Part shown: piece by piece, positions 24,584 to 53,758 of the stretch
Layout: each line of letters begins with the position of its first letter
Numbering within the stretch: the first letter of the stretch is position 1
DNA from: Methanothrix sp.
GTDB taxonomy: Archaea; Halobacteriota; Methanosarcinia; Methanotrichales; Methanotrichaceae
Direction: 5' to 3'
DNA: 64,000 bases
NCBI GenBank assembly: GCA_963682135.1
Contig: OY821645.1
Coordinates: 1,408,001 to 1,472,000 of the forward strand
The notes under the pieces: generated by a model
What the model was told of the DNA's origin: nothing
The model's input: the letters and a program-made list of their open reading frames with translations, nothing else
Database searches by the model: none
Translations under genes and position numbers: made by a program

Positions 24584-24985
24584 CCGCGCGCCCTCTTTTA
24601 GCGATCTATTTTCCTTAATGCGCCTCCCGCTATTATCCTTGTCATTCTCTCATCGGGATTTCGCGTCTTTATGCCTTCGCCTGAAAACTTTTTGCGTCTG
24701 ACGCGAAGGGCGCGAAGAAGACAACCATTGATCGCCGATCCTCACGTTCTTTCTTCATAGTAATATTTGTACGGAATAGATGATGGAAGGGCGATGTCCA
24801 TCCTTCAGCCAGGATGCTGATGCAGTCCAAGGATGGACGGACCCGGTCTGCGCTGCCCCTGTGGGCAAGGCTCATCGGAGACGAGCGCATTCGTTCTCCC
24901 AGAGGCCGAGCCGAGAGGCATTGCAGAAGATCACACTTCCTCGGGATTACTGTCTTGCCGTAAAAAAGTGACCAGGGTATTCTTC

Positions 24986-26144: not shown

Positions 26145-27934
<1,790 letters not shown>

Positions 27935-27977
27935 GCTCTATCACGTTCCTCGATGGAAGACCAACGAGCTGCAGATG

Positions 27978-28018
27978 ATATAAAAACTTTGTTAAAATAT
28001 TTTCATACTTGTTATGAA
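27978..28018 (-). promoter_or_regulatory. Perfect TTCATA-N5-TATGAA palindrome and TATA box of the second amt
   Basis: Palindrome at 28002-28018; TTTATAT on the minus strand at 27984-27978. Confidence 0.65.
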
Positions 28019-28084
28019 GAGCGCATAACTACATCACATTCTAAAAAGTGCCGATTATCTCTCTATAATATGCTGTGTCGCAGG

Positions 28085-28590
28085 ATTATTATAACCAAGC
28101 AGCTGCGGCCAACCACAAAGGCACGAAGGCACAAAGGACGCACAAAGAGATTCGCAGCGGCCCTCCAGCTTTGCGATTTTTGCAGATATGTAAGCCAGTC
28201 GAGCCTGATAGCCAGTCGACCTGTACCGGACCGTCCGGGCCTGCTGCTATTTCGTCAGGGTGAGATGGATTACCTAACAAGCGCTCGTATTCAGGGTAGT
28301 AGGCCGTTCGAGCTGAGATCAGGAATTTCATGTGAAGGTGGAAAGCCGCGAAGTTCCGATGAGAGAAGGACAATTTTTCCCAGATCCCTCAGGTCGCGCC
28401 GTTGGAGACGTTTCTCGACAAAGCCATTCGGGACGACTTCTGCCATCCGCCAGGCGGGCCGGGCTGCCTGGCGAGTTTGCAGCTGTTCTTGCTGGGGCCC
28501 GCGGTCTGCGGAGCCGGGTTTGCTGTGATGCGGTCCGAGTGGGCAGGTTTTTGGAAATGATGGCAGTCTACGTTTATTATTAACAGATAA
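28085..28590 (+). repeat. ~500-bp GC-rich repeat unit, copy 1 (diverged)
   Basis: TTATAA at 28089, ACCACAAAGGCACGAAGGCACAAAG at 28112, GAAGTTCCGATGAGAGA at 28350, GGAGACGTTTCTCGACAAAG. Confidence 0.85.
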
Positions 28591-29060
28591 ATATAACTAA
28601 ACAACTATGGTCAAACCACAAAGCACACAAAGATCACAAAGGACGCACAAAGACGTTTCAAGGACAATTATCGGCAGTATCCGGCTGGCCGATCTTTGCG
28701 TGACTGTGAGCCAGCCGCGCTCGGCACGCTCGACCGTGGGCCGGGCCGTCCGGGCTCGCTTCACTCGTCTCCGGACGGGCGCTCGGGCGGGCTCTCGCAT
28801 GGGCGCGCGGGCCTGCGTGGGCTTGTGGCCTGGGGGGCCGGTCGGGCCGAGATCACGGATTTCACGCGAAGGCGCGAAGCCGCGAAGTTCCGATGAGAGA
28901 TGGACAATTTTTCCCAGAGCCCCCGGGCCGCGCCGTTGGAGACGTTTCTCGACAAAGGCCATTCGGGGCGACTGCCGTCGTCTGCCAGGCGGGCCAAGCT
29001 GCCGGGCAAGCGCTCGTGCCAGGTGGGCCAGGAGGAAGGATGGCGGAAAGCATGCTGAGG
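28591..29060 (+). repeat. ~500-bp GC-rich repeat unit, copy 2
   Basis: ATATAA at 28591 (502 bp after copy 1); same ordered modules. Confidence 0.9.
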
Positions 29061-29068
29061 CATGAGCC

Positions 29069-29545
29069 TCAATCTAACTTGCCCTTAAGCGTATTGAGAT
29101 CATTACCTCTTATCAAAATTGAGTTGACATCGACCTCTTTGGCATGTTGATGCATTCCGGAGTCATCTGTGAATAATATGGCATCTTCTCTCTTGGCCAA
29201 AGCTATAAAATACGAGTCAAACCCGGAACAACCGGTCTCTAATGCCACATCCCACGCGACATTGAAAATAGCCTCTTCATCTGCTACGTTATATGATTTT
29301 AGGATTCCTTTTGATGCTCTTGCGGCCAGAGTTCTGCCAGCGAGCCGCTTGGCTACCGCAGCGGTTTCCACTACACAGACCTTAGGAACATGAACTTCTA
29401 CATCTCGCTCTTCTATAAGCTTGATGAGAGCTTTGCATTTTTCGTGGGTTTCCTGCTCTCTGGAATAGGCCTCTTGGGAGAGTGACCGGAGTGGTTTGAA
29501 GATGCTCTTAACTATAACGGATGTATCTAAAACGGCCCTAATCAT
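29069..29545 (-). CDS. vapC: VapC-family PIN-domain toxin
   Basis: VLDTSV, E(TAAV), FDSYFIALA, LFTDD acidic PIN residues. Confidence 0.9.
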   Translation of the reverse strand: MIRAVLDTSVIVKSIFKPLRSLSQEAYSREQETHEKCKALIKLIEERDVEVHVPKVCVVETAAVAKRLAGRTLAARASKGILKSYNVADEEAIFNVAWDVALETGCSGFDSYFIALAKREDAILFTDDSGMHQHAKEVDVNSILIRGNDLNTLKGKLD

Positions 29546-29732
29546 AGTATATTCTTGTCCGCGTCTCTTTCAGGACTGCGTCAATATCTTCCCTGGCTTC
29601 AGGCTCGCCCAGATCGTCCAGAAGATCGCTGAAGCTCTCATGAATGGTGATGCTCACCCGAGAATTATTGGGGAGATTCAGGCCCCCGAGAGGCTTGAGC
29701 ACATTATTTTCATAAATAGCTTTTATTTTCAT
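29538..29732 (-). CDS. Antitoxin, DUF104/AF2212-like
   Basis: IKAIYENNVLKPL...L.....V.I.I; overlaps the toxin start. Confidence 0.88.
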   Translation of the reverse strand: MKIKAIYENNVLKPLGGLNLPNNSRVSITIHESFSDLLDDLGEPEAREDIDAVLKETRTRIYYD

Positions 29733-29844
29733 ATCGGCACCTGATATTTAGGCGAAATGTAAACTGATATATGGACATGATCAATATTTAGAGCTGCCGA
29801 TGATGTCTTTTTTTCTTCATAACTCGGAAATTTGCTGCTACGTG

Positions 29845-30453
29845 GGACCGGGAGGCCGGTCGGGCCAGGTGTGCCAGCTTCTGGCAAGGGAGGTTTCCGG
29901 GCGCCGGATTTTGAGAAACGATGTCAGTTTTTAATACTATTAGCTGATAATTATAACCTGGCAACCACGGCCAACCACAAAGGCACGAAGGCACAAAGGA
30001 TGCAAAAAGAGATGCGCGGCGGCCCTCCAGCTTTGCGATCCTTGCGGGCCACCGCCTGTGGGCCGGGCCGTCCGGGCTCGCGTCGCTCGTCTGCGGACGG
30101 GCGCTCGGGCGGGCTCCCGCATGGGCGTGCGTGCCTGCGTGGGCTTGCTGCCTGGGGGCTGGTCGGGCTGAAATCACGGAATTCACGCGAAGGCGCGAAG
30201 ATTCGATGAGAGATGGACAATTTTTCGCCATGGCCCTCGGGCCGCGCCGATGGAGTCGTTTCTCGACAAAGGCCCATCCGGGGCGACAGCCGTCGTCCGC
30301 CAGGCGGGCCAGGCTGCCAGGCAAGCGCTCGTGTCAGGAGACTTGGAGGCCGGTCGGGCCCGATGGCCAGGTGTGCCAGCTTCTGGTAAAGGGAGTTTTC
30401 CGGGCGCAGGATTTTGGGGGCAGCCTCATTTCACCATTATTATTAGATAATAA
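29845..30453 (+). repeat. Tail of a unit plus ~500-bp repeat unit, copy 3
   Basis: Tail module GGCCAGGTGTGCCAGCTTCTGG at ~29863 and ~30365; TTATAA at 29951. Confidence 0.9.
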
Positions 30454-30510
30454 TTATAACCGAGCAGCTACGGCCAACCACAAAGGCACTAAGGCACAAA
30501 GGACGCACAC
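30454..30510 (+). repeat. Repeat head only (copy 4), interrupted by the hicBA cassette
   Basis: TTATAA at 30454 (503 bp after copy 3), then ACCACAAAGGCACTAAGGCACAAAGGACGCAC. Confidence 0.85.
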
Positions 30511-30540
30511 GATGATATATGTTACTAACAAAAATTATGG

Positions 30541-30762
30541 CTAATCATCCGAGAGCCACTCTTCACGAGAGATTCTTCCTTCTCGAAGAATCTCTGAGAT
30601 GAGATTTGCGCCGATCTCTCGTTTATGGTAGTTCGGTATGCGCACGAAGTTGTCTCCGCGGACCATGTAATCGTGATCCGAACCTGGAAATGGTCCTTCG
30701 AACCCTATTTTTTTCAATCGCCTAATGAGCTTGGCTCTTGAAACCGGTCCTAGTTTACTCAA
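30541..30762 (-). CDS. hicA: HicA-family toxin
   Basis: LIRRLKKIGF..P..GSDH..M......IPNYH...I....I..IL. Confidence 0.9.
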   Translation of the reverse strand: MSKLGPVSRAKLIRRLKKIGFEGPFPGSDHDYMVRGDNFVRIPNYHKREIGANLISEILREGRISREEWLSDD

Positions 30763-31012
30763 TTGCAGTCACCGGTTCTATTGATGCGGTTATCACATGC
30801 CCGCCTATTGGTGGAATGGACCGTCCCATGCGGAGCCTGAGTGCTATCCAGCCTTCGATAACCGAGATGAGCTCTTTGCGCGTCTCCTCGATAGTCTTGC
30901 CTGTGGCCCAAGCGCCCTGAAGCTCGGGTACTGAGGCGAAGATTGGTTCCTCATCATCGATAATCTTGTAAACAGCCAGTTCTAGAGCAGCCTCGATATA
31001 TTCAGAGAACAT
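30755..31012 (-). CDS. hicB: HicB-family antitoxin (short form, upstream of toxin)
   Basis: ASVPELQGAWATGKTIEETRKEL..VIEGW....IP. Confidence 0.9.
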   Translation of the reverse strand: MFSEYIEAALELAVYKIIDDEEPIFASVPELQGAWATGKTIEETRKELISVIEGWIALRLRMGRSIPPIGGHVITASIEPVTAIE

Positions 31013-31100
31013 GTTATGCTTCTATTGAGAGATGATGGAAAATATAACTTGCGCCAATGCTAATTCACCGGTGCTGGCTGAGATGTGGATTGCAGGAGCT

Positions 31101-31710
31101 GGATTTTTGGAAATGATGGTGGTTCGCCATTAATATTGGCTGAGAATTATAACCGAGCTGCTACTGGCACCACAAAGACACAAAGCGCACAAAGACGTTC
31201 AAAGAGCAATTCTCGGCAGTCTCCGGCTGGCCGATCTTTGCGTGTCTGTGGTCCAGCCGCGCTCGGCACGCTCGACCGTGGGCCGGGCCGTCCGGGCTCG
31301 CGTCACTCGTCTGCGGATGGGCGCGCGGGCGGGTTCCCGCATGGGCGCGCGGGCCTGCGTGGGCTTGCGGCCTGGGGGGCTGGTCGGGCCTAGATCACGG
31401 ATTTCACGCGAAAGCGCGAAGCTGCGAAGTTCCGATTAGAGAAGGACAATTTTTCGCCATAGCCCTCGGGCCGCGCCGTTGGAGGCGTTTCTCGACAAAG
31501 GCCATCCGGGGCGACAGCCATCGTCCGCCAGGCGGGCCAGGTGTGCCAGGCAAGCGCTCGTGCAGGGTGGGCCGGTATGGGCTTCATTGCGGGCTTTGGG
31601 CCAGCCGTTCTCGGCTGCTCCTCGACTGTGAACCAGGCCGTCCGGGCTCGCGTCACTCGTCTGCGGATGGGCGCGCGGGCCTGCGTGGGCTTGTGGCCTG
31701 GGGGGCCGTA
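31101..31710 (+). repeat. ~500-bp repeat unit, copy 5, plus partial internal duplication
   Basis: TTATAA at 31147; full module order; GGCCGTCCGGGCTCGCGTCACTCG...GGGGGCCG repeated at ~31635-31708. Confidence 0.9.
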
Positions 31711-32160
31711 TGGGTTTGGAAAAGATAGATGCAGAAGAGATCTATGGATAGACAAACCTGTCAGGAGTCGTGGCAAGCTATGGATCAATTTTAATATGAA
31801 TCAGATCATTTAGATTTTTGTTTTGCCGGTTGTGCTAACATGCATCTACCCAAAGGAGGAGTTCCCTCATTCCCGAAGAGATACAAGCGCAGTACTACGA
31901 TCTAAATGATAATCAGATGCCCTATGGCGGAGCCACTGACATTCACGGCTAGATCCTCAGGAAAGTCTCCAAAGAAGAGCAAGACAAGATGATGGCTCGC
32001 ATAAAAAAAGCCTTTGGAAAAGAGTAATCGCTATGTTGCGGGCGGCCATTGACGCGGATATATTCGTTTTCTCCATCAGTTAAAAAAAGCGAGAGTCTAA
32101 CCAAGCGGGAAATCAACCCATATGACATCAAAAAATTCTTATTTCATTTGAGCCCAACCT

Positions 32161-33499
32161 CCCGAAAAGTTCAGGCGCACAAGTTTAGCGCCTGAAGAAT
32201 ATCTCTCTGTTTTTTTGTCATTTCGGTGACGATTATCTGTCCGTCCGCAAGCGCAATTTTCCTTAATTTCTCCAATTGCAAAAGAAGAAGTTCAACGGAA
32301 TATTTGTCTAGTATCTCTGCTTTCCTCATCATATTCATCAGTCGTGACCTGATGATCAGACTCAGGAAAGCGATAAAAATGAATCCTCTTGTTGTCTCTT
32401 CGCCATGAGTATTCAATGGAAGGATGTCAATTTCGCTTTTCAATGCCTTGAAGCTCTTTTCAATTTCATCGCGTTCGCGATAGAGAGAAAGGCACTTCAT
32501 CTCGTCAAAGTTTCCTGAGTAGAATATAATATACTTGCCCATTTTGTTCATTCTTTGTGCAACTGCGTTTTGTTTTATCGTAACTTCAAAGCGATTATCC
32601 ATAACATTCCAGTCGAAGAAGTTTCCAAATCCGTGTGCTTTATCTTTGAAAACTACGTGGGGGTTACTGTTCTTATTCAAGCGCACCTTGAGCAACTCTT
32701 CACGAATATCATAGAGTCTGCTTAGGAGTGTCTGCTTCTCGGTTTGCTCTAATTTGGGATCATAATAAACATACCCCCTGATTTCAATTGAATCAATAAT
32801 ATATGAAATTGGTTTGGCAAAAATGGGATCCTTGTTAAACTTGTGGAGATATTTTACATCATCAAGATCCTTTTGCACTTCCGTCAGCAGGTGCTTCAAA
32901 TCATTCAACTGCAATCTGGCCGCCATAATAAATGAGATTTTATTCGTCATCAGCTCGCGAAGGTTGCTCAAGCTGAAAAATCCACGATCCATCACAGCAA
33001 CATAATTTTGGATGCCATGCGCTTTTATCTTTTTTAGAGTGCCGGAAAGCGTACTGACATCGGAAATACTGCCGGGGAAGATGTCATACATCACGGGTAT
33101 CCCTTTATCCTTATCCAGAATCAGGGACAGATTGATTTGCGGAAGAGACTCGCCATCACGATTGTACCCGTACTCAAGAATATTGATGAGTTGAGAGTAA
33201 CTTGACAGGCTCGTAATATCGTAAATGAGTGTGTCTTTCGTACCGGTTCCCTCGATAAGCTGGGACATGAACCTGTCTGGAATATTGCTTTCACCCAATC
33301 GACCAAGAAGCTCACTCACTCGCTGACTGGTTAGATTGATTTGCGGGGATTCAAGGGCAAGAGAAGTTCCTTCATACCAGGAATCTACATTTCTCATTGC
33401 AGTAGGCCGAATAATCCGGTTGAATGCCAATGCACGAACCATGGACACCTCCGAAGGAGGCAATAAAACCTCTAGATAGCGTTCCAGATTAAGCTCTTC
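32161..33499 (-). mobile_element. IS1634-family element, 5'-truncated by IS66
   Basis: YDITS, GYNRDG..LPQINL, DRGFFS, Y.ERDEIEKSF..LK. The frame stays open up to the IS66 left end. Confidence 0.88.
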
Positions 33500-33960
33500 G
33501 TACGTGTTTAGCCCTCACCTAAATTTTTAAATTTTGCATCAAAATTCATTTAGACCAGAAAAATTAAGTAATATAATCGTAATAATCTTTTATTGGGAGT
33601 ATGGACGAAGGAGAAATTATCAAGCAGCATCGTGAGCTTGTTGAGCAATTAAAGCATGAGAATGAGCTGCTTAAGTTAAGGGTTATCGAACTTGAGTCTC
33701 GCTTAGCTCAATATGAGAATGCACATACCCCACCAAGTCTAAGACGTGGCGGCAATCGCAAAAAAGATCAGGACAAGAAAAACAATGGAAAGCCCGGCCA
33801 AAAAATCGGCCACAAAGGCGTAACAAGACCTTATGCTGCTCCTGATGAGCAAGTGGAAGTCACAATGGACAGATGTCCCGATTGCGGGGCAAAGCTTGGT
33901 TCTCCTTTTCGAATTGATTCCAAGATCATTGAGGAAATCCCTGAACCTGAGCCGATTATA

Positions 33961-35101
33961 GAGGATTCCTATAAACCAGCCCAATTCTTAATATAGAAAT
34001 GTTTATATACTATTAACACCATTATATGTTATGAATTCTTTTACCACTTGGGTATTGCGAGGGCTTAGCGAGACGCAAGGTAAATCTCGGTTATCGCAGA
34101 TATCGGATTTGATCGACTGGTTACCCATTCGCCGGATACTGGATGAGATGTATGACAATAAGAGCGAAAAGGGTGGAAGGCCCAACTGCGATGTAATTTT
34201 GATGTTCAAGATCCTGATACTCCAACAATGGTACGGCTTGAGCGATTTGGAAATTGAGCGACAAATGGCTGACCGCATCTCGTTTATGTCATTTCTTGGT
34301 TTCCCTGATATGTTCCCCGATTCTAGGACGATATGGCTATTTAGAGAGCGCATGGCCAATGCTGGAAAAGATGAAGTTGTCTGGGCAGAACTTCAGAGGC
34401 AATTGGATGCTATGGGTTTACAGGTCAAACATGGAACGATCCAAGATGCCACGTTCATTGAAGCAGATCCCGGAAAGTTCAAGAAACCACGTGGAAAAGA
34501 TGCTAAGACCCGCCGCAGTAGGGATGGGACAATAGCCAAGAAGGGCAATGAATTCCATTTTGGCTACAAACTGCATCAAAAAACCGATATTGATTATTGC
34601 CTGATTCGTGAAATCGAGACTTCCACGGCTTCGTTGCATGATAGTCAGGTTGATCTCTCAATTGAGGATGAAGTGGTGTTAAGAGACAGGGGGTATTTTG
34701 GGGCAAAGGCCAGGGGAATAGATTTTACAATGAAGCGCAGGACAACCGATAAGCCACTGGAGGAACTTGATAAGGAGCGAAATCGATTGATCAGCAAGCT
34801 AAGATCCCCAGGTGAGCGCCCCCATGCAGTGATCAAGAGAATTTTTAACTCGGGCTGGGTGTTGGTTACAACGATAAAGAGGGTTCATATAAAAATGATG
34901 GCTACCGCCTTTGCTTTCAATTTATATCAGCTCTGCACTCTGAAAAAAGCCGGAATCATTTGAGCCTAGCGGACGCTGTCGAAGAATGATCAGAAAAGGG
35001 GGCTGACGAATGAAGTATTTAGCGAAATTGCCTCCTCGTGAAGCGAATTATGCATGAATTTCTGAAAACAATCTCTTAAACCGAAGTAAATAGGAATCCT
35101 C
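33961..35101 (+). mobile_element. IS5-family element nested in IS66
   Basis: TIR GAGGATTCCTAT / ATAGGAATCCTC; 4-bp TSD TATA at 33957-33960 and 35102-35105. Confidence 0.95.
34031..34963 (+). CDS. IS5-family transposase
   Basis: GGRP, LQQWYGLSD, PDSRTIWLFRE, QDAT, FGYKLH, DRGY, RSPGERP. Confidence 0.93.
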   Translation: MNSFTTWVLRGLSETQGKSRLSQISDLIDWLPIRRILDEMYDNKSEKGGRPNCDVILMFKILILQQWYGLSDLEIERQMADRISFMSFLGFPDMFPDSRTIWLFRERMANAGKDEVVWAELQRQLDAMGLQVKHGTIQDATFIEADPGKFKKPRGKDAKTRRSRDGTIAKKGNEFHFGYKLHQKTDIDYCLIREIETSTASLHDSQVDLSIEDEVVLRDRGYFGAKARGIDFTMKRRTTDKPLEELDKERNRLISKLRSPGERPHAVIKRIFNSGWVLVTTIKRVHIKMMATAFAFNLYQLCTLKKAGII

Positions 35102-36071
35102 TATAGTCACCGAATACAAAATTGCGCACTACAGATGTCCCTGTTGCTTGAAAGAAGTTGCTGCAAAAGATCCCGGCTGTCCACATGAAGGCAAATTCGG
35201 AAACAATGTAATTGCGCAGGCGACACTGCTAAGATATGATGGCAGAATGCCTCATAGAAAGATTCACGACGCAATGATGAGACTCTTTGGTCTGAAAATA
35301 AGTCCAGCTACGATACTCGATTTAACTCGTCGCGCTGCTGATGCGGTTCAATCGGAATACGACGCGATTCTAAAGATGATTCGAGGTGCTCCAATCCTGT
35401 ATGTGGATGAAACTTCAATCCATGTCCAGGGAGAAAGACATTGGATCTGGACCTTCTCCACGCCATCGGAGTCTTTTTTCGTGATCCGGAAGAGTCGAGG
35501 CATGAAGGTTCTGAACGGAAGTCTTAACTCGGAGATTCAAGGGAATAATCGTGTGCGATGGTTGGAAACCCTATGCCAGGTTCACAAATCGCATTCAGCG
35601 ATGTTGGGCGCATCTACTTAGAGAGTCAAAAGAGATTGCTGAGAAGTTTGAGGAAGCAATTCCGCTACATAACATGCTCAAAGAGCTTTACGAGACACTA
35701 ACCGAAGCTCTAGAAAGCGATCCTCCGCCAAAAGTCAGAAAGACTCTATGGCAATTGGCGCGAAAAGCGCTTCGGCACTGGGTCATGAAAGAGTATTCTA
35801 TCGAGAAAGTCCGGAAATTTATCGGGAAAATCAACAACGGATTTGACTACTGGTTCACCTTTATCGTAATTCCCGGTGTAGAGCCGACTAATAATCGAGC
35901 GGTGAGAGCGTTGCGACCCCATGTTGTTTTGAGAAAGATCCTGGGCACACTGCGCAATGACAAAGGAACTTCGATTCATGAGCGAATCATGACGACACTG
36001 GCCACCTGGGGACAGAGAGGATTGAATTGCCTCCAAATGCTAACTACGAAGCTGACCAGCTAAACACGTAC

Positions 36072-36184
36072 CCCATAGACATTGATGTTCCCGCGCCGAA
36101 AAAGAAACCTATACGTTTTGCAGAAGATAGCTGACTCTTTAGTTCATCTATTTCTCGTGCAATATCATATTTCTTTTCGGACAT
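36072..36184 (-). pseudogene. SIR2-family protein N-terminal fragment truncated by IS66
   Basis: MSEKKYDIAREIDELKSQLSSAKRIGFFFGAGTSMSMG ends exactly at the IS66 TIR; GAGxS is the sirtuin NAD-binding motif. Confidence 0.75.
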
Positions 36185-36246
36185 GAATAAGTATTCTCCC
36201 AGAAAGGAGAAAATCGTTCTTAAATATATACCTATCTGAAAACAAT

Positions 36247-37580
36247 GGTAGTGTGCCCGCTTTGCTGTAAAATCTCGGTTAAATCCCACGTCAAGAGCCG
36301 ACGTGCTGTGAACGAGATAACAGCAAGTTATTTCTTCACAAGATTTAATAATTAGCCCTGTATCCCCAAAGTTGTCGAAACCTAAGGAGGGACACAGAGC
36401 TATGAATATGGTAGACTTAGCAGAAGATTATCTTATCGATCCAAAAGAGGGTATGAGGAAGTTAATAGCTGGCTATCTAAATGAAGTAATGCAACTTGAA
36501 GCCCAAAAACAAATTCAGGCAGGACCTTACGAGCGCACCGGCAAGAGAAAAGGCCATCGTAACGGATCAAGACCGCGATCACTTAAGACCATTCACGGTG
36601 ACATAACTCTCGATAAACCTGAAATCCGGGAGTTCCCATTCAAGTCAAAAGTATTCGAGAGATATTCTCGTGTAGAGGATTCTGTAAGAGTCGCTGTTGC
36701 GGAATCGTATTTAGAGGGTGTATCAACCAGAAAAGTCGAGAAGATATTCTCGAAATTTGGATTGCATGGCATCTCTGCTTCGGAAGTCTCACGAATAACC
36801 AAACGTCTTGATAAACAGGTTAAAGAGTTCCTTAACAGGCCCATTGAAGGAGCCATCCCTTATTTGTTCGCGGATGCAAGCTATTTCAAGGTTAGAACAG
36901 ATGGCAGGTATATCAACAAGGCATTACTCGTTGTAACCGGCATTCGCGAAGACGGCTATCGTGAGATTCTGAGTGCGGCGGTTGCTGATAGCGAAGAAGA
37001 GTATTGTTGGGAAAGCTGCTTTGAAGATTTGAAAGCCAGAGGACTTGACGGCGTCAAATTAGTGATATCCGATGGTCACAAAGGGATACAGGCTGCGGTT
37101 GAAAAGGTATTCGTTGGTGCATCTTGGCAAATGTGCAATGTCCATTTTATGCGTGCAGTGCTCAAAAACATATCGAAAAAGGATAAAAAAGAAGTTGCGT
37201 ACCTGCTGAAAGATGCTCTTGAAGATGAGCGCAAAATGCAGGAAACAGCAGTAATCCTTGATGGAATGGGTTATAAAAAGTCTGCAGACACAATCGATAG
37301 GTTCCGGTTCGATCTCTGGAATTACAAATCATTTCCAAGATCGCACTGGAGAAAGATCCGGACTACTAACGGTCTGGAAAGAATCAACAAAGAGCTGAAG
37401 CGAAGAAGTCGTGAATCTGGAGCGTACTCTAATGATCAATCACTCCTGAGAGTTGCAGTCTGCATCATGATGGACATCCATGAGGATTGGATAACTGGTA
37501 ATAGGTATTTATCCTTGGAAGAGTAAAAAGAACCAGGATATAGGGCTACTGCGATTTTACAGCAAAGCGGGCACGCTACC
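36247..37580 (+). mobile_element. Intact IS256-family element
   Basis: ~28-bp TIR GGTAGTGTGCCCGCTTTGCTGTAAAATC / GATTTTACAGCAAAGCGGGCACGCTACC; 8-bp TSD AAAACAAT at 36239-36246 and 37581-37588. Confidence 0.96.
36402..37526 (+). CDS. IS256-family transposase
   Basis: RNG.R.R, GVSTRKV, DASYFKVR, SDGHKG, Q.C.VHF, TTNGLERINKELKRR. Confidence 0.95.
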   Translation: MNMVDLAEDYLIDPKEGMRKLIAGYLNEVMQLEAQKQIQAGPYERTGKRKGHRNGSRPRSLKTIHGDITLDKPEIREFPFKSKVFERYSRVEDSVRVAVAESYLEGVSTRKVEKIFSKFGLHGISASEVSRITKRLDKQVKEFLNRPIEGAIPYLFADASYFKVRTDGRYINKALLVVTGIREDGYREILSAAVADSEEEYCWESCFEDLKARGLDGVKLVISDGHKGIQAAVEKVFVGASWQMCNVHFMRAVLKNISKKDKKEVAYLLKDALEDERKMQETAVILDGMGYKKSADTIDRFRFDLWNYKSFPRSHWRKIRTTNGLERINKELKRRSRESGAYSNDQSLLRVAVCIMMDIHEDWITGNRYLSLEE

Positions 37581-37941
37581 AAAACAATCAAATTTTAATT
37601 AAATTTCAGTTCCATTGAATAGAAGACCGATAAAAGCGATCTTCGTCTGCAATCCCGTTCGCTTCCTTTAAGCTCCCACGTTCATATCTTTTCACAATCC
37701 CTCTGCACAATTCCGACATCTGCCGCCATCTTCTCAAATAATTCCTTATATCCTCGCTCTCACCGCAATCTTGGAGGTGAGGCCAAGACCAGCAGACACG
37801 AGCAAGCACTCCTTTCAAGGGCAAATTCCGAGAAGTTGGGGTTCTCCTCCCCCCAACTCTTCCAGCATGGCGGCGGAGCCAGTGCTAAAAACCGGCAGCT
37901 CCCCAGAAATAAATATTAAATATAAAATAAAATCAAGGTGA

Positions 37942-39074
<1,133 letters not shown>

Positions 39075-39075
39075 A

Positions 39076-39429
39076 ATGAAAGAAGTCCTGGCGGTCATCC
39101 AGATGAACAAGATGGAGTGCACCAAAGACGCCCTGGAGGTCATAGGCATCCCATCCATCACCGTCTACAAAGCCAGCGGCCGGGGAAAGCAGAAAGGTCT
39201 GCAAATCCCCCATCCATCCCAGCTTGATTCGTCGAACAGGAACATGTTATTCATTCCCAAGAGGATGATCTCGGTCATGGTGGAGGACGAATTCGTCCCG
39301 GCAGTGGTGGCAGTTATCACTAAGATCAATCGCACCGGCAACTTCGGTGACGGCAGGATCTTCGTCTGCCCGGTGGAAGAGTCAGTTCGCATAAGGACCG
39401 GTGAGAGAGGGAGCGTGGCCATATCATGA
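39076..39429 (+). CDS. nifI2: P-II family nitrogenase regulator NifI2
   Basis: [31 protein letters not shown]. Confidence 0.93.
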   Translation: MKEVLAVIQMNKMECTKDALEVIGIPSITVYKASGRGKQKGLQIPHPSQLDSSNRNMLFIPKRMISVMVEDEFVPAVVAVITKINRTGNFGDGRIFVCPVEESVRIRTGERGSVAIS

Positions 39430-41075
39430 GCGGAGTTGAAAAAACTGTGGAGAGCGTAGTGGATAGTCCGATCCCCGGCGCAAAAGAGCCGATTTCAATC
39501 GCCCACAGCAAACAGGTGGTGGAGGGAATGCTGAAAAGCCTTCCCAAGAAGACGATTGAGGTGAGAAGCAAGCATGTGGTGGTCAAAGATTCCTGCGAGG
39601 TCGAGCAGAAGATCGATGCCAACAGTCGCACCATCCCCGGCATCCTCACCAACCGGGGCTGCGCTTACGCCGGCTCCAAAGGCGTGGTCTTCGGGCCCAT
39701 CAAGGATATCCTGCATATCACACATGGGCCCATCGGATGCGCTTACTTCACCTGGGGAACCAGAAGAAATCTCATGAGCAAAGAAGACGGCAGAGACAAT
39801 TTCGCCGGCTACTGCTTGAGCACTGACGTCAAGGAGACCGATATCGTCTTTGGAGCCGAGAAAAAGCTGGCAGCCGCCATTCGAGAGGCTTATGCCATCT
39901 TCAAGCCCCAGTGCATCTCGGTCTTCTGTACCTGCCCCATCGGCCTCATCGGCGACGATATCGAATCGGTCTGCAAGAAGGCGGAAGCGGATCTGAGAAT
40001 CAAGGTCATCCCCGTGCGCTGTGAGGGCTACCGCGGCGTCAGCCAATCGGCAGGCCACCACATCGCCTCTAATTCACTGATGGAGCACCTGGTGGGCAGC
40101 GAAGAGCTGGAAGACCCCGGGCCCTTCGACGTTAACGTCTTCGGCGAATACAACATCGGTGGAGACTACTGGGTGGTCAAGGATCTGCTGGAGAAGGTGG
40201 GATACAGAGTCGTCAGCCCCTTCACGGGAGATGCTTCCTTCCACGATATCGCCAAAGCTCACCGGGCCAAGCTCAACATCCTGCTCTGCCACCGCTCCAT
40301 CAACTACACCAATCGCATGATGGAAGAGAAGTACGGTATTCCCTGGTTGAAGGTCAACTATCTGGGGGTAGAAGACACCATCAAAACCCTGCGTGACATG
40401 GCCGCCTTCTTCGACAACCCGGATCTGACCAAAAAGACCGAGGCAGTGATCGCCGAGGAGATGGCCAAAATCCAGCCGGTTATCGATATGTACCGCAAGA
40501 GGCTGGCCGGAAAGAGGGTCATGATCCTGGTGGGAGGATCACGCGCTCATCATGTCCGCAATATGTTCGAGACCCTGGGCATGGATGTGGTCGTGGCCGG
40601 CTACGAGTTCGCCCATCGGGATGACTATGAGGGTAGACGTGTGCTCTCCAGCATCGTTCATACCGGACAGTCCAAGGTACTGGCCGATATCCATTACAAA
40701 CGCGATCCCAACGTGGTTTCGCCCTACGACGATGCCGCTATCCAGAAGAAGAAAGAAAAAATTCCAAGACTGATGGACTATGAAGGCCTGCTGCCCCATA
40801 TGAAAGACGGCCAGGTCATGATAGATGACTACAGCCATCACGAGTGCGAGCGCCTGGTGAAGGATCTGGGAATAGATCTCTTCTGTTCGGGAATCAAAGA
40901 CAAGTACGTCTTCCAGAAGATGCACATCCCCTCCCGGCAGATGCACTCCTATGACTACAGCGGACCCTACACCGGCTTTGAAGGCTTCGTGCAGTTTGCC
41001 AAGGACATCGACATGTCTGTGAACAGCCCAACCTGGAAATTCATAAACCCGCCCTGGAGGCAGAACAATGCTTGA
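39426..41075 (+). CDS. nifD: Nitrogenase MoFe protein alpha subunit
   Basis: P-cluster Cys in GCAYAG, HGPIGC and TCPIG; GVSQS.GHH; cofactor ligands CHRS and MHSYDY; YEFAH with a long insertion. Confidence 0.97.
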   Translation: MSGVEKTVESVVDSPIPGAKEPISIAHSKQVVEGMLKSLPKKTIEVRSKHVVVKDSCEVEQKIDANSRTIPGILTNRGCAYAGSKGVVFGPIKDILHITHGPIGCAYFTWGTRRNLMSKEDGRDNFAGYCLSTDVKETDIVFGAEKKLAAAIREAYAIFKPQCISVFCTCPIGLIGDDIESVCKKAEADLRIKVIPVRCEGYRGVSQSAGHHIASNSLMEHLVGSEELEDPGPFDVNVFGEYNIGGDYWVVKDLLEKVGYRVVSPFTGDASFHDIAKAHRAKLNILLCHRSINYTNRMMEEKYGIPWLKVNYLGVEDTIKTLRDMAAFFDNPDLTKKTEAVIAEEMAKIQPVIDMYRKRLAGKRVMILVGGSRAHHVRNMFETLGMDVVVAGYEFAHRDDYEGRRVLSSIVHTGQSKVLADIHYKRDPNVVSPYDDAAIQKKKEKIPRLMDYEGLLPHMKDGQVMIDDYSHHECERLVKDLGIDLFCSGIKDKYVFQKMHIPSRQMHSYDYSGPYTGFEGFVQFAKDIDMSVNSPTWKFINPPWRQNNA

Positions 41076-42426
41076 TTACACACCCAAACAGATGGCCGAG
41101 CGCGAGACATTGGTCATAAACCCAGCCAAGATCTGCCAGCCGATAGGGGCCATTCTTGCCTACAAAGGCATCCACAACTGTATGCCTATCACTCATGGCT
41201 CGCAGGGTTGCTCGTCTTACCTGCGCATGGTGCTGGCCCGCCACTACCGCGAGCCCACGCTGGCGGCAACCTCCTCCTTCACTGAGGATTCGGTGGTCTT
41301 TGGAGGCAGGAACAACCTCAAGGAGGCTGTAGACAACGTGGTCAACATCTACCATCCTGATGTGCTGGCCATAAACACTACCTGCTCCTCTGAAACCATA
41401 GGCGACGATGTGAGCAGCTTCATGGAGGAGATCAAGGAAGAGGAGTTCTTCGATCCCAAGACGAAAGTGGTCATAGCCAATACCCCCAGCTACGTTGGCT
41501 CGCACATCACCGGATACGATAATGCAGTCAAAGCCATCGCCCAGACCTTTCCCAGGAAGAGCAAGCCCAACGGAAGACTGAACATCATTCCCGGTTTCGT
41601 GGACCCGGGAGACATCCGGGAGATCAAGAGGCTGCTTTCCATCATGGGAGTCTCCACGATCGTATTCCCCGATACCACCGATGTCTTCGACGCGCCTCTC
41701 ACCCCGCAGTCAGGCGGCCTGTACCCGCCGGGTGGAACGACTATCCCGGATCTGGTTGACGCCGGCAACTCCCGTGCCACCATCGCTTTGGGAAGAACCG
41801 CCGGAGCTTCTGGTGCTATGGTGCTGAAGGGCAAGTTCGGCATACCTGCGGTCATAGGCCCCATGCCCATCGGCATCAGAAACAGCGATGCCTTCGTCAT
41901 GTCTGTGTCCAGCCTCATGGATGTCCCAATTCCGCAAGATATCGAGTACGAACGGGGCCGGCTGGTGGACATGATGACCGACGCTCATCCTCATTTCCAT
42001 GGCAAGGACCTGGCCATATTCGGAGACCCGGATACCGTTATCGGTCTGGTTAGCCTGGCGGTGGAGATGGGCATGAATCCGGTCTTTGCTCTCACCGGAA
42101 CGCCGGACAAGAAGTTCGCAGAGGAGGTGCATAACCTGGCATCCGATTGCGAAGCACTGCAAGGTGACACCTTCCTTCTCCATCAAAAGATCAAGAACCA
42201 TCCCGTGGATATGCTGATTGGAAACACCTATGGGAAATTGATCGCCCGGGCGGAGGACATCCCGCTGGTACGGGTGGGCTTCCCCATCACCGATCGGGCC
42301 AACCTGCATTATTTCCCAATCATTGGATACGCGGGAACGGCTCGATTGGTGGAGATAATCGGCAACACCTTCCTGGAAAGAAGGGATCGAGACTCGGATG
42401 ACACGCACTTCGAGATGATCCTTTAG
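41068..42426 (+). CDS. nifK: Nitrogenase MoFe protein beta subunit
   Basis: INPAKICQP, HGSQGC, TTCSSETIGDD, TPSYVGSH, GFPITDR. Confidence 0.97.
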   Translation: MLDYTPKQMAERETLVINPAKICQPIGAILAYKGIHNCMPITHGSQGCSSYLRMVLARHYREPTLAATSSFTEDSVVFGGRNNLKEAVDNVVNIYHPDVLAINTTCSSETIGDDVSSFMEEIKEEEFFDPKTKVVIANTPSYVGSHITGYDNAVKAIAQTFPRKSKPNGRLNIIPGFVDPGDIREIKRLLSIMGVSTIVFPDTTDVFDAPLTPQSGGLYPPGGTTIPDLVDAGNSRATIALGRTAGASGAMVLKGKFGIPAVIGPMPIGIRNSDAFVMSVSSLMDVPIPQDIEYERGRLVDMMTDAHPHFHGKDLAIFGDPDTVIGLVSLAVEMGMNPVFALTGTPDKKFAEEVHNLASDCEALQGDTFLLHQKIKNHPVDMLIGNTYGKLIARAEDIPLVRVGFPITDRANLHYFPIIGYAGTARLVEIIGNTFLERRDRDSDDTHFEMIL

Positions 42427-42435
42427 GGGACTGGC

Positions 42436-43851
42436 ATGAGCATTGTTAACATCTTTGAGGGCAGAGAGGGGCATATTGCCCAGAAGGGCGAACAGAGCGT
42501 TCCTTTGGCCTGCAATAGCGATAGCCTGGCCGGAGCGGTGAGCCAGAGGGCATGCGTCTACTCCGGAGCGAGGGTGGTGCTCAATCCCATCACAGACGCT
42601 CTGCATCTGGTGCATGGGCCGATCGGCTGCGCCAGCTACACCTGGGACATTCGGGGCAGCACCTCCTCAGGCCCGGATCTCTATAGGAACAGCTTCTCCA
42701 CGGATATGAAGGAGTTGGATGTGATCTTTGGCGGAGAGAAGAAGCTGGCGGCATCTTTGCGGGAACTGGCAAAGAAGTATCATCCGCCTGCCATCTTTGT
42801 CTATTCCACCTGCATCGTAGGAATTATTGGAGACGATCTGACATCCATCTGCAAGAAGGCCTGCCTGGAATTGGGCATTCCAGTATTGCCTGTGAAATCG
42901 GAAGGATTTAGGGGAAGCAAGAACGAGGGCTACAAGGCGGCATGCAATGCACTTACAGAACTTATCGGAATGAAGGACTACAGCCCCAAAGGGCCTTCCA
43001 TCAACCTGCTCGGCGAATACAACGTGGCTGGCGACCTGAGCTTCGTCAAGCCCTTCTTCGAAGAGATGGGCCTGGAAGTGGTGGCCACTTTCACCGGCGA
43101 CTCCAGGGTAGAAGAGCTCGAGAGGGCTCATAGCGCACAGCTCAACTTAGTGCAGTGCAGCGGCTCCATGACCTATCTGGCCAAGAAGATGGAAGAGAAA
43201 TACGGCATTGCCTACCGGCGGATAAGCTTCTTTGGATTGCAGGACATGTCCGACGCTCTTCGTACTGCTGCTGAGTTCTTCGGCTCGGCGGCCATGAAAG
43301 AAAAGGCTGAGGAGATAATTCGCCGGGAGACGGAACGGGTGAGCCCGGAGATCGAAGCCTATCGATCTAACGTTGCCGGAAAGAAGGCCGCCATCTACAT
43401 GGGCGGAGCCGCCAAGGCCGTCTCGCTGGTAAAAGCTTTTCAGGAGCTGGAAATGGAGGTCGTGATAATTGGAACGCAGACTGGAAATCGAGAGGACTAT
43501 GAGAAGATCGCTTACATCATAAAGAGAGGTACCGTAATCATTGATGATGCCAATCCCCTGGAGCTGAAGGAGCTTCTCATCAAACAGAACGCGGACCTGT
43601 TGGTGGCAGGCGTAAAAGAGCGTTTCCTGGCCTACAAAATGGGTATCGCGTTCTGTGACTTTAATCACGATCGAACCACCAGCTTCGAGGGCTATACAGG
43701 AATGATAAATTTTGCCAGAGAGGTATCTATCACCATCAACAGTCCAGTCTGGCAGCTTCCTGTAAAAAGAGAATGCTGCGATGGCAGAGGATCACAATTA
43801 GCGTCTATTCGAGGAGTGAATGATGATATCGAGGAGCCTTGCCACAGTTAA
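42436..43851 (+). CDS. nifE: FeMo-cofactor scaffold NifE
   Basis: SQRACVYSGARVVL, HGPIGCASYTWDIRGS, STCIVGIIGDD, QCSGS. Confidence 0.95.
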   Translation: MSIVNIFEGREGHIAQKGEQSVPLACNSDSLAGAVSQRACVYSGARVVLNPITDALHLVHGPIGCASYTWDIRGSTSSGPDLYRNSFSTDMKELDVIFGGEKKLAASLRELAKKYHPPAIFVYSTCIVGIIGDDLTSICKKACLELGIPVLPVKSEGFRGSKNEGYKAACNALTELIGMKDYSPKGPSINLLGEYNVAGDLSFVKPFFEEMGLEVVATFTGDSRVEELERAHSAQLNLVQCSGSMTYLAKKMEEKYGIAYRRISFFGLQDMSDALRTAAEFFGSAAMKEKAEEIIRRETERVSPEIEAYRSNVAGKKAAIYMGGAAKAVSLVKAFQELEMEVVIIGTQTGNREDYEKIAYIIKRGTVIIDDANPLELKELLIKQNADLLVAGVKERFLAYKMGIAFCDFNHDRTTSFEGYTGMINFAREVSITINSPVWQLPVKRECCDGRGSQLASIRGVNDDIEEPCHS

Positions 43852-45139
43852 TCCCTGCTCTATGTGCATGCCCATGGGCAGCGTGCTGGTCTTCCGGGGA
43901 GTTGAGGGCTGCATGCCCCTCTTCCACGGCTCGCAGGGATGCAGCACCTACATGCGCCTCTACCTGGCCCATCACTTCCGTGAGCCTGTGGACATTGCAT
44001 CCACTGCTCTAAGCGAGAAGGGCGCAGTCTATGGTGGATCAGCTAATCTTATGCAGGGGCTGAAGAATGTTATAAGAGGCTACAACCCGAAGGTGATAGG
44101 CATTGCCACCACCTGTCTGGCCGAGACCATCGGGGATGATGTGCCCCAAATAGTTCGCGAGTTTCAGGCACAGGAACCCCTGGCGAGAGATGTAATCATA
44201 GTCCCCGTATCGACACCCAGCTACGCTGCCTCTCATGAAGTTGGATATCGGGTAGCTCTGAAGGGTCTGGTCCAGACGTTGGCCAGGAAATCGAAGCCCA
44301 GCGGACGGATCAACATGCTGGTGGGATCCATCATCTCGCCTGCTGATGTTCGTTTTCTGCGGCGGCTCTTTGATGACTGGGGCCTGGGGTATATTCTGAT
44401 GCCGGATATATCCGAGACCTTTGATGCCACCCTCAGCCAAGATCTGCCACTCATCCCCAAGGGCGGAACGCCCCTGGAAGACATCCGGGATACGGCTAAC
44501 TCAAAAGCGACACTGACCATAGGCGGATGGGTGCAAGAGCCGGGAGCGGGAGACTATTTAGAAAAGGAATTCAAAGTTCCCCATGTTGCTCTGCCTCTGC
44601 CCATAAGTTTAGAATTCACCGATCGTCTGGCTGCAAATCTGGAAGAGCTGACGGGGCTATCCATGCCGGAGAGCTACGAACGGGAGAGGGGACGATTGCT
44701 GGATACAATGGTCGATGCCCATAAGATCCTAGCTGATGTTAAGACGGCGGTCTACGGAGATACCGAGATGGTCTTGGGCATAACCCGCATCATGATGGAA
44801 CTGGGCATGAAACCGCAGATAGTGGCCACGGGAGCCGCAAATCCTGCGTTTGCGGAAAATGCCGCGGAGATTGCACCCGGATCCAAGGTTTCCATGGGGG
44901 CTGATTTCTCACAGATCGCAGAAGAAGCGGTGAGCCGGGATATCGAGCTGATGGTAGGCCCCTTCACAGGAAGAGGGATTGCCAGAAGAGAGAATATTCC
45001 GCTCTTGCGGGTGGGACTGCCCAATCATGATCGCTACGGAGCCTCCCACCAGTTGTTCCTCGGATATGAGGGCTCGATGAATTTGGTGGAAGGAATGGCC
45101 AACGCCCTGCTTGAAAGCAAAGAGAGGGCAGCGACATGA
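43820..45139 (+). CDS. nifN: FeMo-cofactor scaffold NifN
   Basis: NPCSMCMPMG, HGSQGCSTY, HFREPVDIAS, TTCLAETIGDD. Confidence 0.95.
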   Translation: MMISRSLATVNPCSMCMPMGSVLVFRGVEGCMPLFHGSQGCSTYMRLYLAHHFREPVDIASTALSEKGAVYGGSANLMQGLKNVIRGYNPKVIGIATTCLAETIGDDVPQIVREFQAQEPLARDVIIVPVSTPSYAASHEVGYRVALKGLVQTLARKSKPSGRINMLVGSIISPADVRFLRRLFDDWGLGYILMPDISETFDATLSQDLPLIPKGGTPLEDIRDTANSKATLTIGGWVQEPGAGDYLEKEFKVPHVALPLPISLEFTDRLAANLEELTGLSMPESYERERGRLLDTMVDAHKILADVKTAVYGDTEMVLGITRIMMELGMKPQIVATGAANPAFAENAAEIAPGSKVSMGADFSQIAEEAVSRDIELMVGPFTGRGIARRENIPLLRVGLPNHDRYGASHQLFLGYEGSMNLVEGMANALLESKERAAT

Positions 45140-45513
45140 GAGATGACTACAAGCTGGAGCAATTTCAGAATAAAGAGTATATAAGACTTGAAACCGTTAA
45201 AAGGAACGGACAGATGGTCCCGACGCCCGTATGGTTTGTTGTAGATGAGGGCAGGCTCTTCATTCGGTCCTATGCCAATAGCGGCAAGGTCAAACGGATG
45301 TGCAATAACCCTCATGTCCGGGTTACACCTTCGGATGCAGTGGGCAAATCTCGCGGCGTGACCATCGATGGCACTGCAGTTCGAGCTAATGGTGATATGG
45401 AGATCAAGATAAGTCAGCAGCTCTACCGCAAATACGGTTTGATGAAGATGTCCTTTGATCTCTGGGGCGCCATTAAGCAGTTCGACTGGGCAGTATTTGC
45501 CATTGAGGTTTGA
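45136..45513 (+). CDS. PPOX-class putative F420-dependent oxidoreductase
   Basis: YI.LET.KRNG..VPTPVWF....GKVKR..NNP.V; ATGA overlap with nifN. Confidence 0.85.
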   Translation: MRDDYKLEQFQNKEYIRLETVKRNGQMVPTPVWFVVDEGRLFIRSYANSGKVKRMCNNPHVRVTPSDAVGKSRGVTIDGTAVRANGDMEIKISQQLYRKYGLMKMSFDLWGAIKQFDWAVFAIEV

Positions 45514-45520
45514 AAAAAAC

Positions 45521-47094: not shown

Positions 47095-47513
47095 CTGTCT
47101 TCTGATCATCTATTGCGCTGACCTTTTCCTGCTATAATGGAAAGATACTCCATTTTACTCTTCTAAATTGTTGTAGCCAGTCTTAAAAAAGATTACTTTA
47201 TTAATATCGTAAATGTTATATGATATCTCAGATGCTCTGTATTCATACAAGAATCACTATTTTATGTGATACTAAGAAATGTTCTCAAAAATATATTTAA
47301 GTTTGTAATCTCAGTACGGATGATTGTAGGGGTTTCGCGATTATGAATGAATATGAATAGATCAGATCAATTCCGATTTTCTATTAAATACCCTTTTAAC
47401 TGCCACGATTAAGTCCCTTGCAGCGATGTGCCAATGGATCTCGTTGCACAGGCCTCAGAGTTAATACAAAAATTAAATAGGTTTGACTAGACAATTGATT
47501 AAGGGTGATGTAG

Positions 47514-48722: not shown

Positions 48723-48733
48723 AGGTGATATGA

Positions 48734-49063
<330 letters not shown>

Positions 49064-49080
49064 GAAATCTTTTTTGCTAA

Positions 49081-50205: not shown

Positions 50206-50217
50206 TGCAATAGAATG

Positions 50218-53751: not shown

Positions 53752-53758
53752 GAGTATT

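Follow-up and report, generated by a model that had tools for sequence, protein, structure and literature searches.

The genomes of Methanothrix contain a real and lineage-wide architecture of cassette arrays, for which no prior description was found and whose nearest functional counterparts are chromosomal integrons and clusters of attC sites lacking integron integrases (CALINs), together with the dif modules of Acinetobacter. One such array lies between the ammonium transporter gene amt and nifH in the window, i.e., the 64,000-nt stretch of a Methanothrix sp. chromosome analysed here (G000:C1:1408001-1472000; G000 is the source genome, complete at 3.04 Mb). Each array is a head-to-tail string of modules in a single orientation, which are of three types: gene cargo, a non-coding module J of ~320 nt and a non-coding module C of ~176 nt. 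Methanothrix species are among Earth's most abundant methane producers, and to our knowledge almost nothing is known about gene exchange in their genomes. A sequence-only reading of the window had described a repeat array interleaved with toxin–antitoxin (TA) cassettes, a description that is borne out by the co-orientation of the junctions and by the TA enrichment of the other copies.

Module types and the 16-nt motif

The ~500-bp repeat unit is a composite of module J, consisting of a tail, an AT-rich core, CACAAAG heptads and the GC-rich parts A and B, and of module C. A junction profile of ~123 nt that covers the tail, the AT-rich core and four CACAAAG-type heptads detects co-oriented, variably spaced copies in all arrays retrieved, the core being its best-conserved part. 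Between successive junctions there are 48 intervals, of which 17 are 'empty' (<500 nt, GC-rich) and 31 contain a lower-GC stretch. When aligned to a 680-position hidden Markov model (HMM) of the entire unit, cargo-bearing units retain the head side up to variable points, clustered at positions ~245-335 and 565-628, and resume at positions ~459-513 after the cargo. The short empty intervals are devoid of exactly module C, the segment between the two profile points. The module order, described earlier as largely conserved, was reproduced in an alignment of seven units that includes three other species.

A 16-nt motif, GGAGGCCGGTCGGGCC, closes module B and recurs where the tail starts, and thus module C, cargo or both are located between two motif copies. 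The idea of a recombination site much longer than attC therefore has to be revised, because the ~500-bp unit consists of two non-coding modules and the recurrent boundary is the 16-nt motif with a GC-rich element of ~50 nt. In a census of the de-duplicated array loci retrieved and of five G000 regions (≤2 mismatches), 147 motif copies were co-oriented with the junctions and one was opposite. Exactly one module type was found in 60 of the 93 inter-motif segments: J in 31 (median 323 nt), cargo in 17 (median 733 nt) and C in 12 (median 176 nt). The combined segments contain J with cargo (15), J and C with cargo (8), C with cargo (5), J with C (4) or another combination (1), and consecutive motif copies are separated by 164 to 2570 nt. 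One interval of genome G039 (L055 4130-6691) carries HicB, ParE-like (with partner) and MNT cargos that are parted by the motif alone. In an alignment of 96 motif contexts, conservation reaches at least 90% at 13 positions of the motif, and its flanks are not conserved. The ~50 nt on the 5' side are GC-rich and semi-conserved, with B-type and C-type variants, while the 12 nt on the 3' side are cassette-specific and go with the next module. A tail and a junction invariably come after cargo, the opposite side of which is variable.

The J and C modules are considered non-coding because none of the ten open reading frames (ORFs) of the units has a Pfam hit at E≤1 and because only 79 of 820 indel runs (10%) in pairwise comparisons of module C are multiples of three. 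These two results agree with the absence of a conserved reading frame noted in the sequence-only reading. The possibility that the units are decayed genes was rejected, as their ORFs match no Pfam domain. Rfam returned no match for positions 27500-32500 at E≤1, and RNAalifold predicted no base pair for 44 junctions on either strand, none for the 96 motif contexts and no consensus structure for head plus module A on either strand. The body gave a weak structure on the plus strand (-26.6 kcal/mol over 450 nt) that compensatory changes do not convincingly support. The analogy with attC drawn by the sequence-only reading thus does not extend to structure, since neither junction nor motif has a conserved hairpin. 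The units also match no known insertion sequence (IS) and no partner of a miniature inverted-repeat transposable element (MITE). In a search of G000 for IS that share the core halves as termini, 12-mer matches outside arrays were scattered singletons, and the ends of IS200-type elements are unrelated to the units. Five near-identical IS200-type elements with a Y1 transposase gene are present in G000 at 36, 410, 1037, 1233 and 2467 kb; in each case TTTATTAC precedes the element and both ends carry GC-rich hairpins.

The left part of module C corresponds to one half of a dispersed CTTCGCG/CGCGAAG hairpin element. GC-rich CTTCGCG...CGCGAAG hairpins occur throughout G000 (42 matches vs. ~7 expected, 26 with an inverted arm). 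A copy in the window is located between convergent genes (24639-24687), and the ~35 further sites include 746607/746635, 1958946/1958977, 2011374/2011412 and 2616747/2616785.

Cargo, distribution and turnover

The cargo set comprises 31 intervals from 13 arrays in 8 genomes and includes homologues from related genomes, which are not independent. TA-type domains are detected by Pfam in 22 of the 31 intervals. They comprise MNT/HepT, HicA/HicB-UPF0150, PIN with AF2212-like or DUF2281, ParE/YafQ-like proteins, DUF4258 paired with an MqsA-like zinc ribbon, and TumE, and two GNAT genes are counted among them. Adjacent small toxin and antitoxin genes of known families, the hallmark of type II TA systems, make up cargo both in the window and elsewhere. 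The ORFs of 25 of the 31 intervals run antisense to the head direction. The association with TA genes is also evident in the genome of G000, where 13 of 36 matches to PIN, HepT and UPF0150 lie within 1.5 kb of a repeat match, whereas 2000 random placements gave 1.1 on average and 6 at most; places this close to a repeat match make up 3.1% of the genome.

Nine of the 31 cargo intervals gave no hit, and five of these nine represent two recurrent cassettes without known family. Recurrent are a gene pair encoding proteins of 173-176 and 109-118 amino acids (L051:4146-4673, minus strand, with L049:7227-7580, minus strand) and a gene for a protein of 131 amino acids (L051:2963-3355, minus strand). 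A further recurrent cassette, also a pair, encodes proteins of 152 and 122 amino acids (L052:4109-4948, minus strand). None of these genes matches Pfam or NCBIfam, and PADLOC yielded only one weak match for the no-family cargo (PDC-M05B, the 122-amino-acid protein). These recurrent cassettes without known family are candidates for new TA or defence modules.

The array flanks often contain defence-type genes, encoding SIR2-STAND, SIR2_2, Fic, RelA/SpoT-like or AAA+ proteins, the last with a subtilase, and the SIR2-STAND flank gene matches SIR2 defence models. A gene of ~30% GC for a SIR2-like protein with an nSTAND3 NTPase domain (1123 amino acids; G000 588133-591501, L031:134-3502) adjoins the second G000 array, which has an internal gene of 27% GC for a membrane protein of 370 amino acids. 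Both genes look recently acquired.

A search of G000 with unit 2 of the window array returned 36 matches, which form clusters, besides that in the window, at 591.6-597.1 kb, 463 kb, 686-688 kb and 938-939.5 kb; heads are also found singly at several loci. In a family-level sample, 22 of 61 genomes (G000 counted) have matches, including 14 of the 15 congeners searched. Four other genera show short weak matches only, and the two best-sampled genera none at all (0/15 and 0/7). A 21-mer taken from the core, matched exactly but for two degenerate positions, occurs at 75 loci among one genome per species from 185,579 species, all titled Methanothrix or Methanotrichaceae. The exact core has no match in IMG/VR, and the unit has none among PLSDB plasmids by distant blastn. 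Judged by these searches, the repeat family is confined to Methanothrix/Methanotrichaceae. Four characteristic motif strings occur in no text of the literature searched, a collection outside which most subscription journals and supplements fall, and searches for Methanosaeta or Methanothrix together with TA, repeats, cassettes or genomic islands retrieved nothing relevant among the papers listed. The sequence-only reading, too, could not match the array to a described archaeal element.

Comparison of the orthologous amt locus between species revealed that it is filled in G000, different in G033 and G068, and without any unit in G061. G000 has five units with vapBC and hicAB, whereas the G033 array begins with a GNAT cassette, and the only unit in G068 is continued by DNA found 510 kb away in G000. 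In G061 (L063), the amt flank is fused directly to a homologue of window positions 47257-56286, so that the array and the nif cluster are missing; ~19 kb (window 28018-47257: array, IS elements and nif cluster) thus constitute an indel between species. Individual cassettes are found at different loci. The GNAT cassette of the G033 amt array is the one located at 938 kb in G000 (84% identity), and the window vapBC cassette recurs in degraded form in a G039 array beside a gene for a beta-lactamase-fold protein (88-93% identity). The order of cassettes varies as well, and is 131 > 176 > MNT-HepT in G027, DUF4258 > 173 > 131 in G051 and MNT-HepT > 173 in G049, the numbers being amino acids. The proposed gain and loss of modules is therefore supported insofar as content, order and locus differ between species, while recombination itself, be it site-specific or homologous, is what we infer from these differences.

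Sixteen pairs of homologous cargo share 82-96% identity within the cargo, compared to 0.71-0.81 in the flanking junction parts, where the background is 0.67-0.75. Cargo retains some linkage to the next head across the core (0.81 vs. a background of 0.75), and shows no linkage to the previous head (0.73). Junctions are 0.778 identical within an array, 0.742 between arrays of the same genome and 0.735 between genomes, and junction subtypes are common to different species. This weak homogenisation within arrays (0.778 vs. 0.735) gives little sign of the gene conversion expected from frequent homologous exchange. Homology blocks often begin or stop within A/B and not at the motif, and arrays coincide with synteny breaks. 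At the solo locus at 938 kb, the slot between ftsY and the next gene holds unrelated DNA in four other species, and hence provides no empty site for defining the ends.

The array in the window and its flanks

The window array is no assembly artefact, because unitigs of the isolate-like run X3 tile positions 27900-31800 with 0 differences and because similar arrays are present in 14 of 15 congeners. No single unitig extends across the whole region. Unitig joints (Logan unitigs of X5, X3, X6 and X7) are mostly cross-matches to other repeat copies and are not readable as cassette excisions. Repeat finding returned a five-copy family (D7), the copies of which are the heads at 28089, 28591, 29951, 30454 and 31147, exactly where the sequence-only reading had placed them; their start-to-start distances are 502, 1360, 503 and 693 nt. 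Several longer repeat families span the GC-rich bodies at 88-92% identity. The AT-rich core, TATTAGCTGATAATTATA, has four matches in the window with up to 3 mismatches (28578, 29938, 30441 and 31134) vs. 0.04 expected from 100 shuffles, and of this core the first head retains just the right half. Units meet at an imperfect palindrome, with 8 of 11 positions paired in an 11-6-11 layout, and the supposed lack of terminal inverted repeats is therefore not strictly true.

The left flank contains amt (26480-27934, minus strand; PF00909, E=4e-122) and a P-II gene. Unit 1 (28084-28586, plus strand) is decayed and AT-enriched; it matches positions 55-122 of the junction HMM at 28084-28147 and positions 23-679 of the unit HMM. 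It starts at the right half of the core (GATTATTATAACC) straight after the unique amt flank and continues with CACAAAG heptads and degraded A, B and C parts. Its left boundary is identical in the orthologous loci of G033, G068 and G055. Junction 2 (28534-28652, plus strand; nhmmer E=1.5e-25) combines the tail, the core at 28578-28595 and four CACAAAG heptads, with the head at 28591. The delimiter motif GGGGGCCGGTCGGGCC at 28833-28848 (plus strand) marks the border between modules B and C of unit 2. Module C of this unit (28849-29018, plus strand) includes the CGCGAAG run together with TTCCGATGAGAGATGGACAATTTTTC and GAGACGTTTCTC and extends to CAAGCGCTCGTG, behind which the usual motif is deleted. 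Homology to the G039 copy of the vapBC cassette begins at 29007.

Both long gaps between heads contain a TA operon, all genes of which are on the minus strand and thus antisense to the heads, as was reported earlier. In the first gap, a vapC-like PIN toxin gene (29069-29545; PF01850, E=1.9e-10) is paired with an AF2212-like antitoxin gene (29538-29732; PF01954, E=4.6e-10), and the delimiter motif GGAGGCCGGTCGGGCC is located directly 3' of this cargo and ahead of the tail (29851-29866, plus strand). Junction 3 (29894-30009, plus strand; nhmmer E=8.4e-26; head 29951) contains an exact core match at 29938-29955. It opens the complete 'empty' unit 3, in which the motif variant GGGGGCTGGTCGGGCT (30154-30169, plus strand) precedes module C (30170-30344, plus strand; located by unit HMM and alignment) and GGAGGCCGGTCGGGCC (30345-30360, plus strand) precedes the tail of junction 4. 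The latter (30396-30509, plus strand; core 30441-30458, head 30454; nhmmer E=2.3e-25) is interrupted by the hicAB cargo immediately past the heptads. This cargo consists of a hicA-like toxin gene (30541-30762), whose PF07927 match (E=1.8e-5, 25.2 bits) is under the Pfam cut-off of 27, paired with a hicB/UPF0150 antitoxin gene (30755-31012; PF21748, E=2.9e-26). Junction 5 (31090-31204, plus strand; core 31134-31151, head 31147; nhmmer E=3.6e-26) is followed by the motif variant GGGGGCTGGTCGGGCC (31375-31390, plus strand) and by module C of unit 5 (31391-31583, plus strand). There the unit-HMM match ends, which covers HMM positions 2-525 at 31090-31583. An extra partial copy of module B (31584-31709, plus strand; unit HMM positions 162-326), the fourth copy of repeat family D1, forms the right end of the array.

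Window 31447-32153 is 81% identical to L037 120-862 of G033. Just past the array, at ~31850-32030 on the plus strand, a short frame with an in-frame TAG, read by eye, ends in ...KEEQDKMMARIKKAFGKE and may represent either a small gene that is broken or an instance of read-through. A DDE_Tnp_1 transposase gene (32171-33463, minus strand) is the first of several IS genes before nifH (37945-38760). The IS pile-up at 32171-37526 contains four kinds of transposase gene: IS4-like DDE, DUF772/DDE (IS5-like), the IS66 family in two ORFs, and the IS256/Mutator family.

Proposed exchange of modules and comparison with known systems

The reading that we prefer, and to which we assign an even chance of being correct, is a cassette array specific to this lineage, the modules of which are exchanged through recombination at the motif or close to it. 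Modules would be gained, lost and shuffled via recombination at or beside the 16-nt motif, carried out by a trans-acting enzyme whose gene is not beside the arrays. Microhomology deletions may contribute extra variation, and the TA cargo could stabilise the arrays through post-segregational killing, as in large chromosomal integrons. A more specific proposal is put forward tentatively: a cassette-capture system of the Methanotrichaceae that is integron-like in its working but is built without integron parts. In such a system, GGAGGCCGGTCGGGCC and the ~50-nt element at the module end would be recognised by a trans-acting recombinase or, alternatively, by an integrase of the Cas1/casposase kind that duplicates a fixed 16-bp target with each insertion. 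It would stockpile and shuffle TA, defence and non-coding cassettes, the last possibly serving as promoters or insulators.

Several observations weigh against exchange at the motif. No recombinase, be it integrase or transposase, is encoded among the 53 array-internal or flanking proteins, and the co-occurring recombinase that the sequence-only reading had suggested looking for was not found beside arrays. PF00589 matches are never near arrays in G000, G039, G051, G033, G027 or G074, and none was detected in the array-rich genomes G049 and G073; G000 also has no serine recombinase. No excision or insertion event was seen directly. The second G000 array (591.6-597.1 kb) mostly has a variant in place of the motif, with only two copies at ≤2 mismatches. 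Left cargo breakpoints are spread over HMM positions 117-628, so that borders do not always coincide with the motif, and the HicB cassette has a B-like end in G039 but a C-like one in G051. In one indel that separates G049 from G051, the deletion runs between 15-nt direct repeats and not between motif copies. The motif census is conditional, because the loci were collected via junction or core sequence, and motif and cargo counts are not independent, because the genomes are related.

G000 contains four PF00589 matches, located at 912, 1635 and 2807 kb, of which only that at 912 kb is an intact gene, encoding a XerA-like protein (912.4 kb). All are outside the window (1408-1472 kb), in agreement with the claim that the window contains no integrase. 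None of the IS110 DEDD and Y1 genes of G000 adjoins an array, and no cas gene is present among the 53 array-associated proteins. The genome has two Cas1 genes, one at 73 kb and the other within a type I-B locus of ordinary make-up, which has a solo head and a vapBC pair as mere neighbours. In this type I-B-like locus (L151, G000 2291000-2303000), cas8b (TM1802) is split in two ORFs, two cas2-like genes are present, and the solo head with the vapBC pair is located just upstream of cas1; no CRISPR-type direct repeat was found within its 12 kb.

The main rival explanation, which we regard as possible but rather doubtful, holds that J, C and CGCGAAG repeats are passive elements, selfish or neutral and of the repetitive extragenic palindromic (REP) or BOX type, that pile up in defence and TA islands and are rearranged by homologous recombination, unequal crossing-over and microhomology deletions, with no dedicated site or enzyme. 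This would account for the solitary modules found genome-wide, such as lone heads and the excess of CGCGAAG-type matches (42 vs. ~7), for the variable cargo breakpoints, the deletion between 15-nt direct repeats, the homology blocks bounded inside A/B, the position of arrays at synteny breaks and the lack of a recombinase. However, an invariant 16-nt island within poorly conserved flanks, with a co-orientation of 147:1, is unexpected for neutral repeats. Units of ~74% identity are poor substrates for homologous recombination, the junction identities (0.778 within arrays vs. 0.735 between genomes) indicate little gene conversion, and three cargos are parted by the motif alone.

An unlikely reading, compatible with either recombination model, considers J and C as expression elements, with the core as an archaeal TATA/BRE (transcription factor B recognition element) promoter, possibly bidirectional, and the heptads as protein-binding sites. 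Transcripts from the heads would run antisense into toxin genes, or J would insulate or drive neighbouring cassettes, and the array structure would be secondary. The patchy but strong conservation of core, heptads, GATGAGAGnGGACAATTTTT and T5 runs on the plus strand, the antisense orientation in 25 of 31 cargo intervals and the constant tail and junction on one side of the cargo are in line with this reading. Gene-less, promoter-active cassettes are also reported for Vibrio superintegrons (PMC11014356). Against it stand the lack of an Rfam match, the absence of a consensus structure for junction and head plus A, and the weak structure of the body. The core is located 125-300 nt from the antitoxin start codons and the cargos have, by inspection, AT-rich upstream regions of their own, which makes the core an unlikely TA promoter.

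Still less probable are MITE-like non-autonomous transposon units that can carry cargo, insert side by side and are mobilised by a transposase in trans, their ends being the core halves (left end (T)GATAATTATAACC, right end GGTTATTATTAGC). The best-conserved part of the junction is an imperfect palindrome, but 8 of 11 pairs in an AT-rich sequence are weak evidence. The right half of the core forms the precise start of the arrays or solo copies at the amt locus, at 939 and 2814 kb and in L049, some units end at its left half (e.g., L051 at 5670), and five different IS transposase genes adjoin the window array. The weak palindrome and these array starts would permit the core to be read as a MITE end or as a Xer-like site. 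Yet no G000 IS has these ends, those of the IS200 type being unrelated, and elements running from core to core would not be expected to show cargo linkage across the next core (0.81 vs. 0.75) without linkage to the previous head (0.73). For the same reason, i.e., the linkage of cargo to the next head across the core, a crossover at the AT-rich core is not favoured.

A canonical integron/CALIN or Xer/dif-module system is close to refuted: co-oriented arrays with TA and acetyltransferase cargo are reminiscent of archaeal integrons, as described in PMC9668308, and of Acinetobacter dif modules, but neither junction nor motif has a conserved hairpin, no intI or other tyrosine recombinase gene is adjacent, the sites are all direct and chromosomal, and PMC9668308 does not mention Methanothrix, Methanosaeta or names beginning with Methanosarcin-.

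If the arrays are an active cassette system, integron-like stockpiling of genes would have a second and independent route, in this case archaeal, and a new recombinase or integrase, along with the site that it recognises, would be indicated. The arrays already provide a catalogue of candidate new TA or defence modules (e.g., the 173-176 plus 109-118-amino-acid pair and the 131-amino-acid gene). Even if shuffling is passive, the arrays mark hot spots of synteny breaks in Methanothrix, one of them beside the nif cluster.

REP elements, bacterial interspersed mosaic elements (BIMEs) and BOX elements are lineage-specific, non-coding, modular and partly palindromic, and occur both dispersed and clustered. 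The solo CGCGAAG hairpins are likewise partly palindromic, and HUH Y1 transposase genes are present in G000. Unlike these elements, the Methanothrix arrays are strictly co-oriented, interleaved with genes and bounded by one invariant motif. CRISPR arrays consist of regular repeats of 23-50 nt and spacers of ~30-40 nt with adjacent cas genes. The Methanothrix arrays share with them, and with tandem casposon insertions, a constant co-oriented short direct repeat between heterogeneous inserts, a pattern expected if every insertion duplicates a fixed target. They differ in the size of the inserts (176-2500 nt instead of ~35), irregular spacing, the lack of terminal inverted repeats and the absence of Cas1 linked to the arrays.

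The sites of Acinetobacter dif (pdif) modules alternate in orientation and are typically found on plasmids, and an Xer/dif site consists of two 11-bp inverted arms with a 6-bp spacer. According to three reports, pdif sites are 28-bp XerC/XerD sites that bound small modules, often TA genes, and these modules are shuffled between replicons by a housekeeping enzyme in trans, without a module-encoded recombinase (PMC13141974, PMC6449649, PMC12907356). The short bounding sites, the small TA-rich modules and the lack of a recombinase encoded by the modules are common to both systems. The Methanothrix sites, unlike those of pdif modules, are all direct, GC-rich and chromosomal, and the array-rich genomes G049 and G073 have no PF00589 match.

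The cassettes of integrons terminate in attC sites, whose imperfect inverted repeats (R''-L''...L'-R') form a hairpin. The attC core consensus RYYYAAC/GTTRRRY, compared by eye, is absent from the array sites, and in place of an attC-type hairpin the Methanothrix modules are bounded by the 16-nt GC-rich motif and its ~50-nt GC-rich element. Further differences from integrons are the absence of IntI near the arrays, the restriction to one archaeal family, the mostly antisense orientation of the cargo, which by inspection appears to have its own promoter region, and the two recurrent non-coding types, J and C, which make up approximately half of the modules. In common with sedentary chromosomal and archaeal integrons (the latter presented by Ghaly et al. 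2022, PMC9668308) and CALINs, the Methanothrix arrays are long and co-oriented, and each of their small modules carries an end element resembling a recombination site. Both carry mainly TA, acetyltransferase and defence genes, many genes of no known function and gene-less cassettes, and in both, arrays often occur without an adjacent integrase, as in CALINs. Like integrons, the Methanothrix arrays are thus co-oriented arrays of small cassettes that vary, and are shuffled in order, between relatives.

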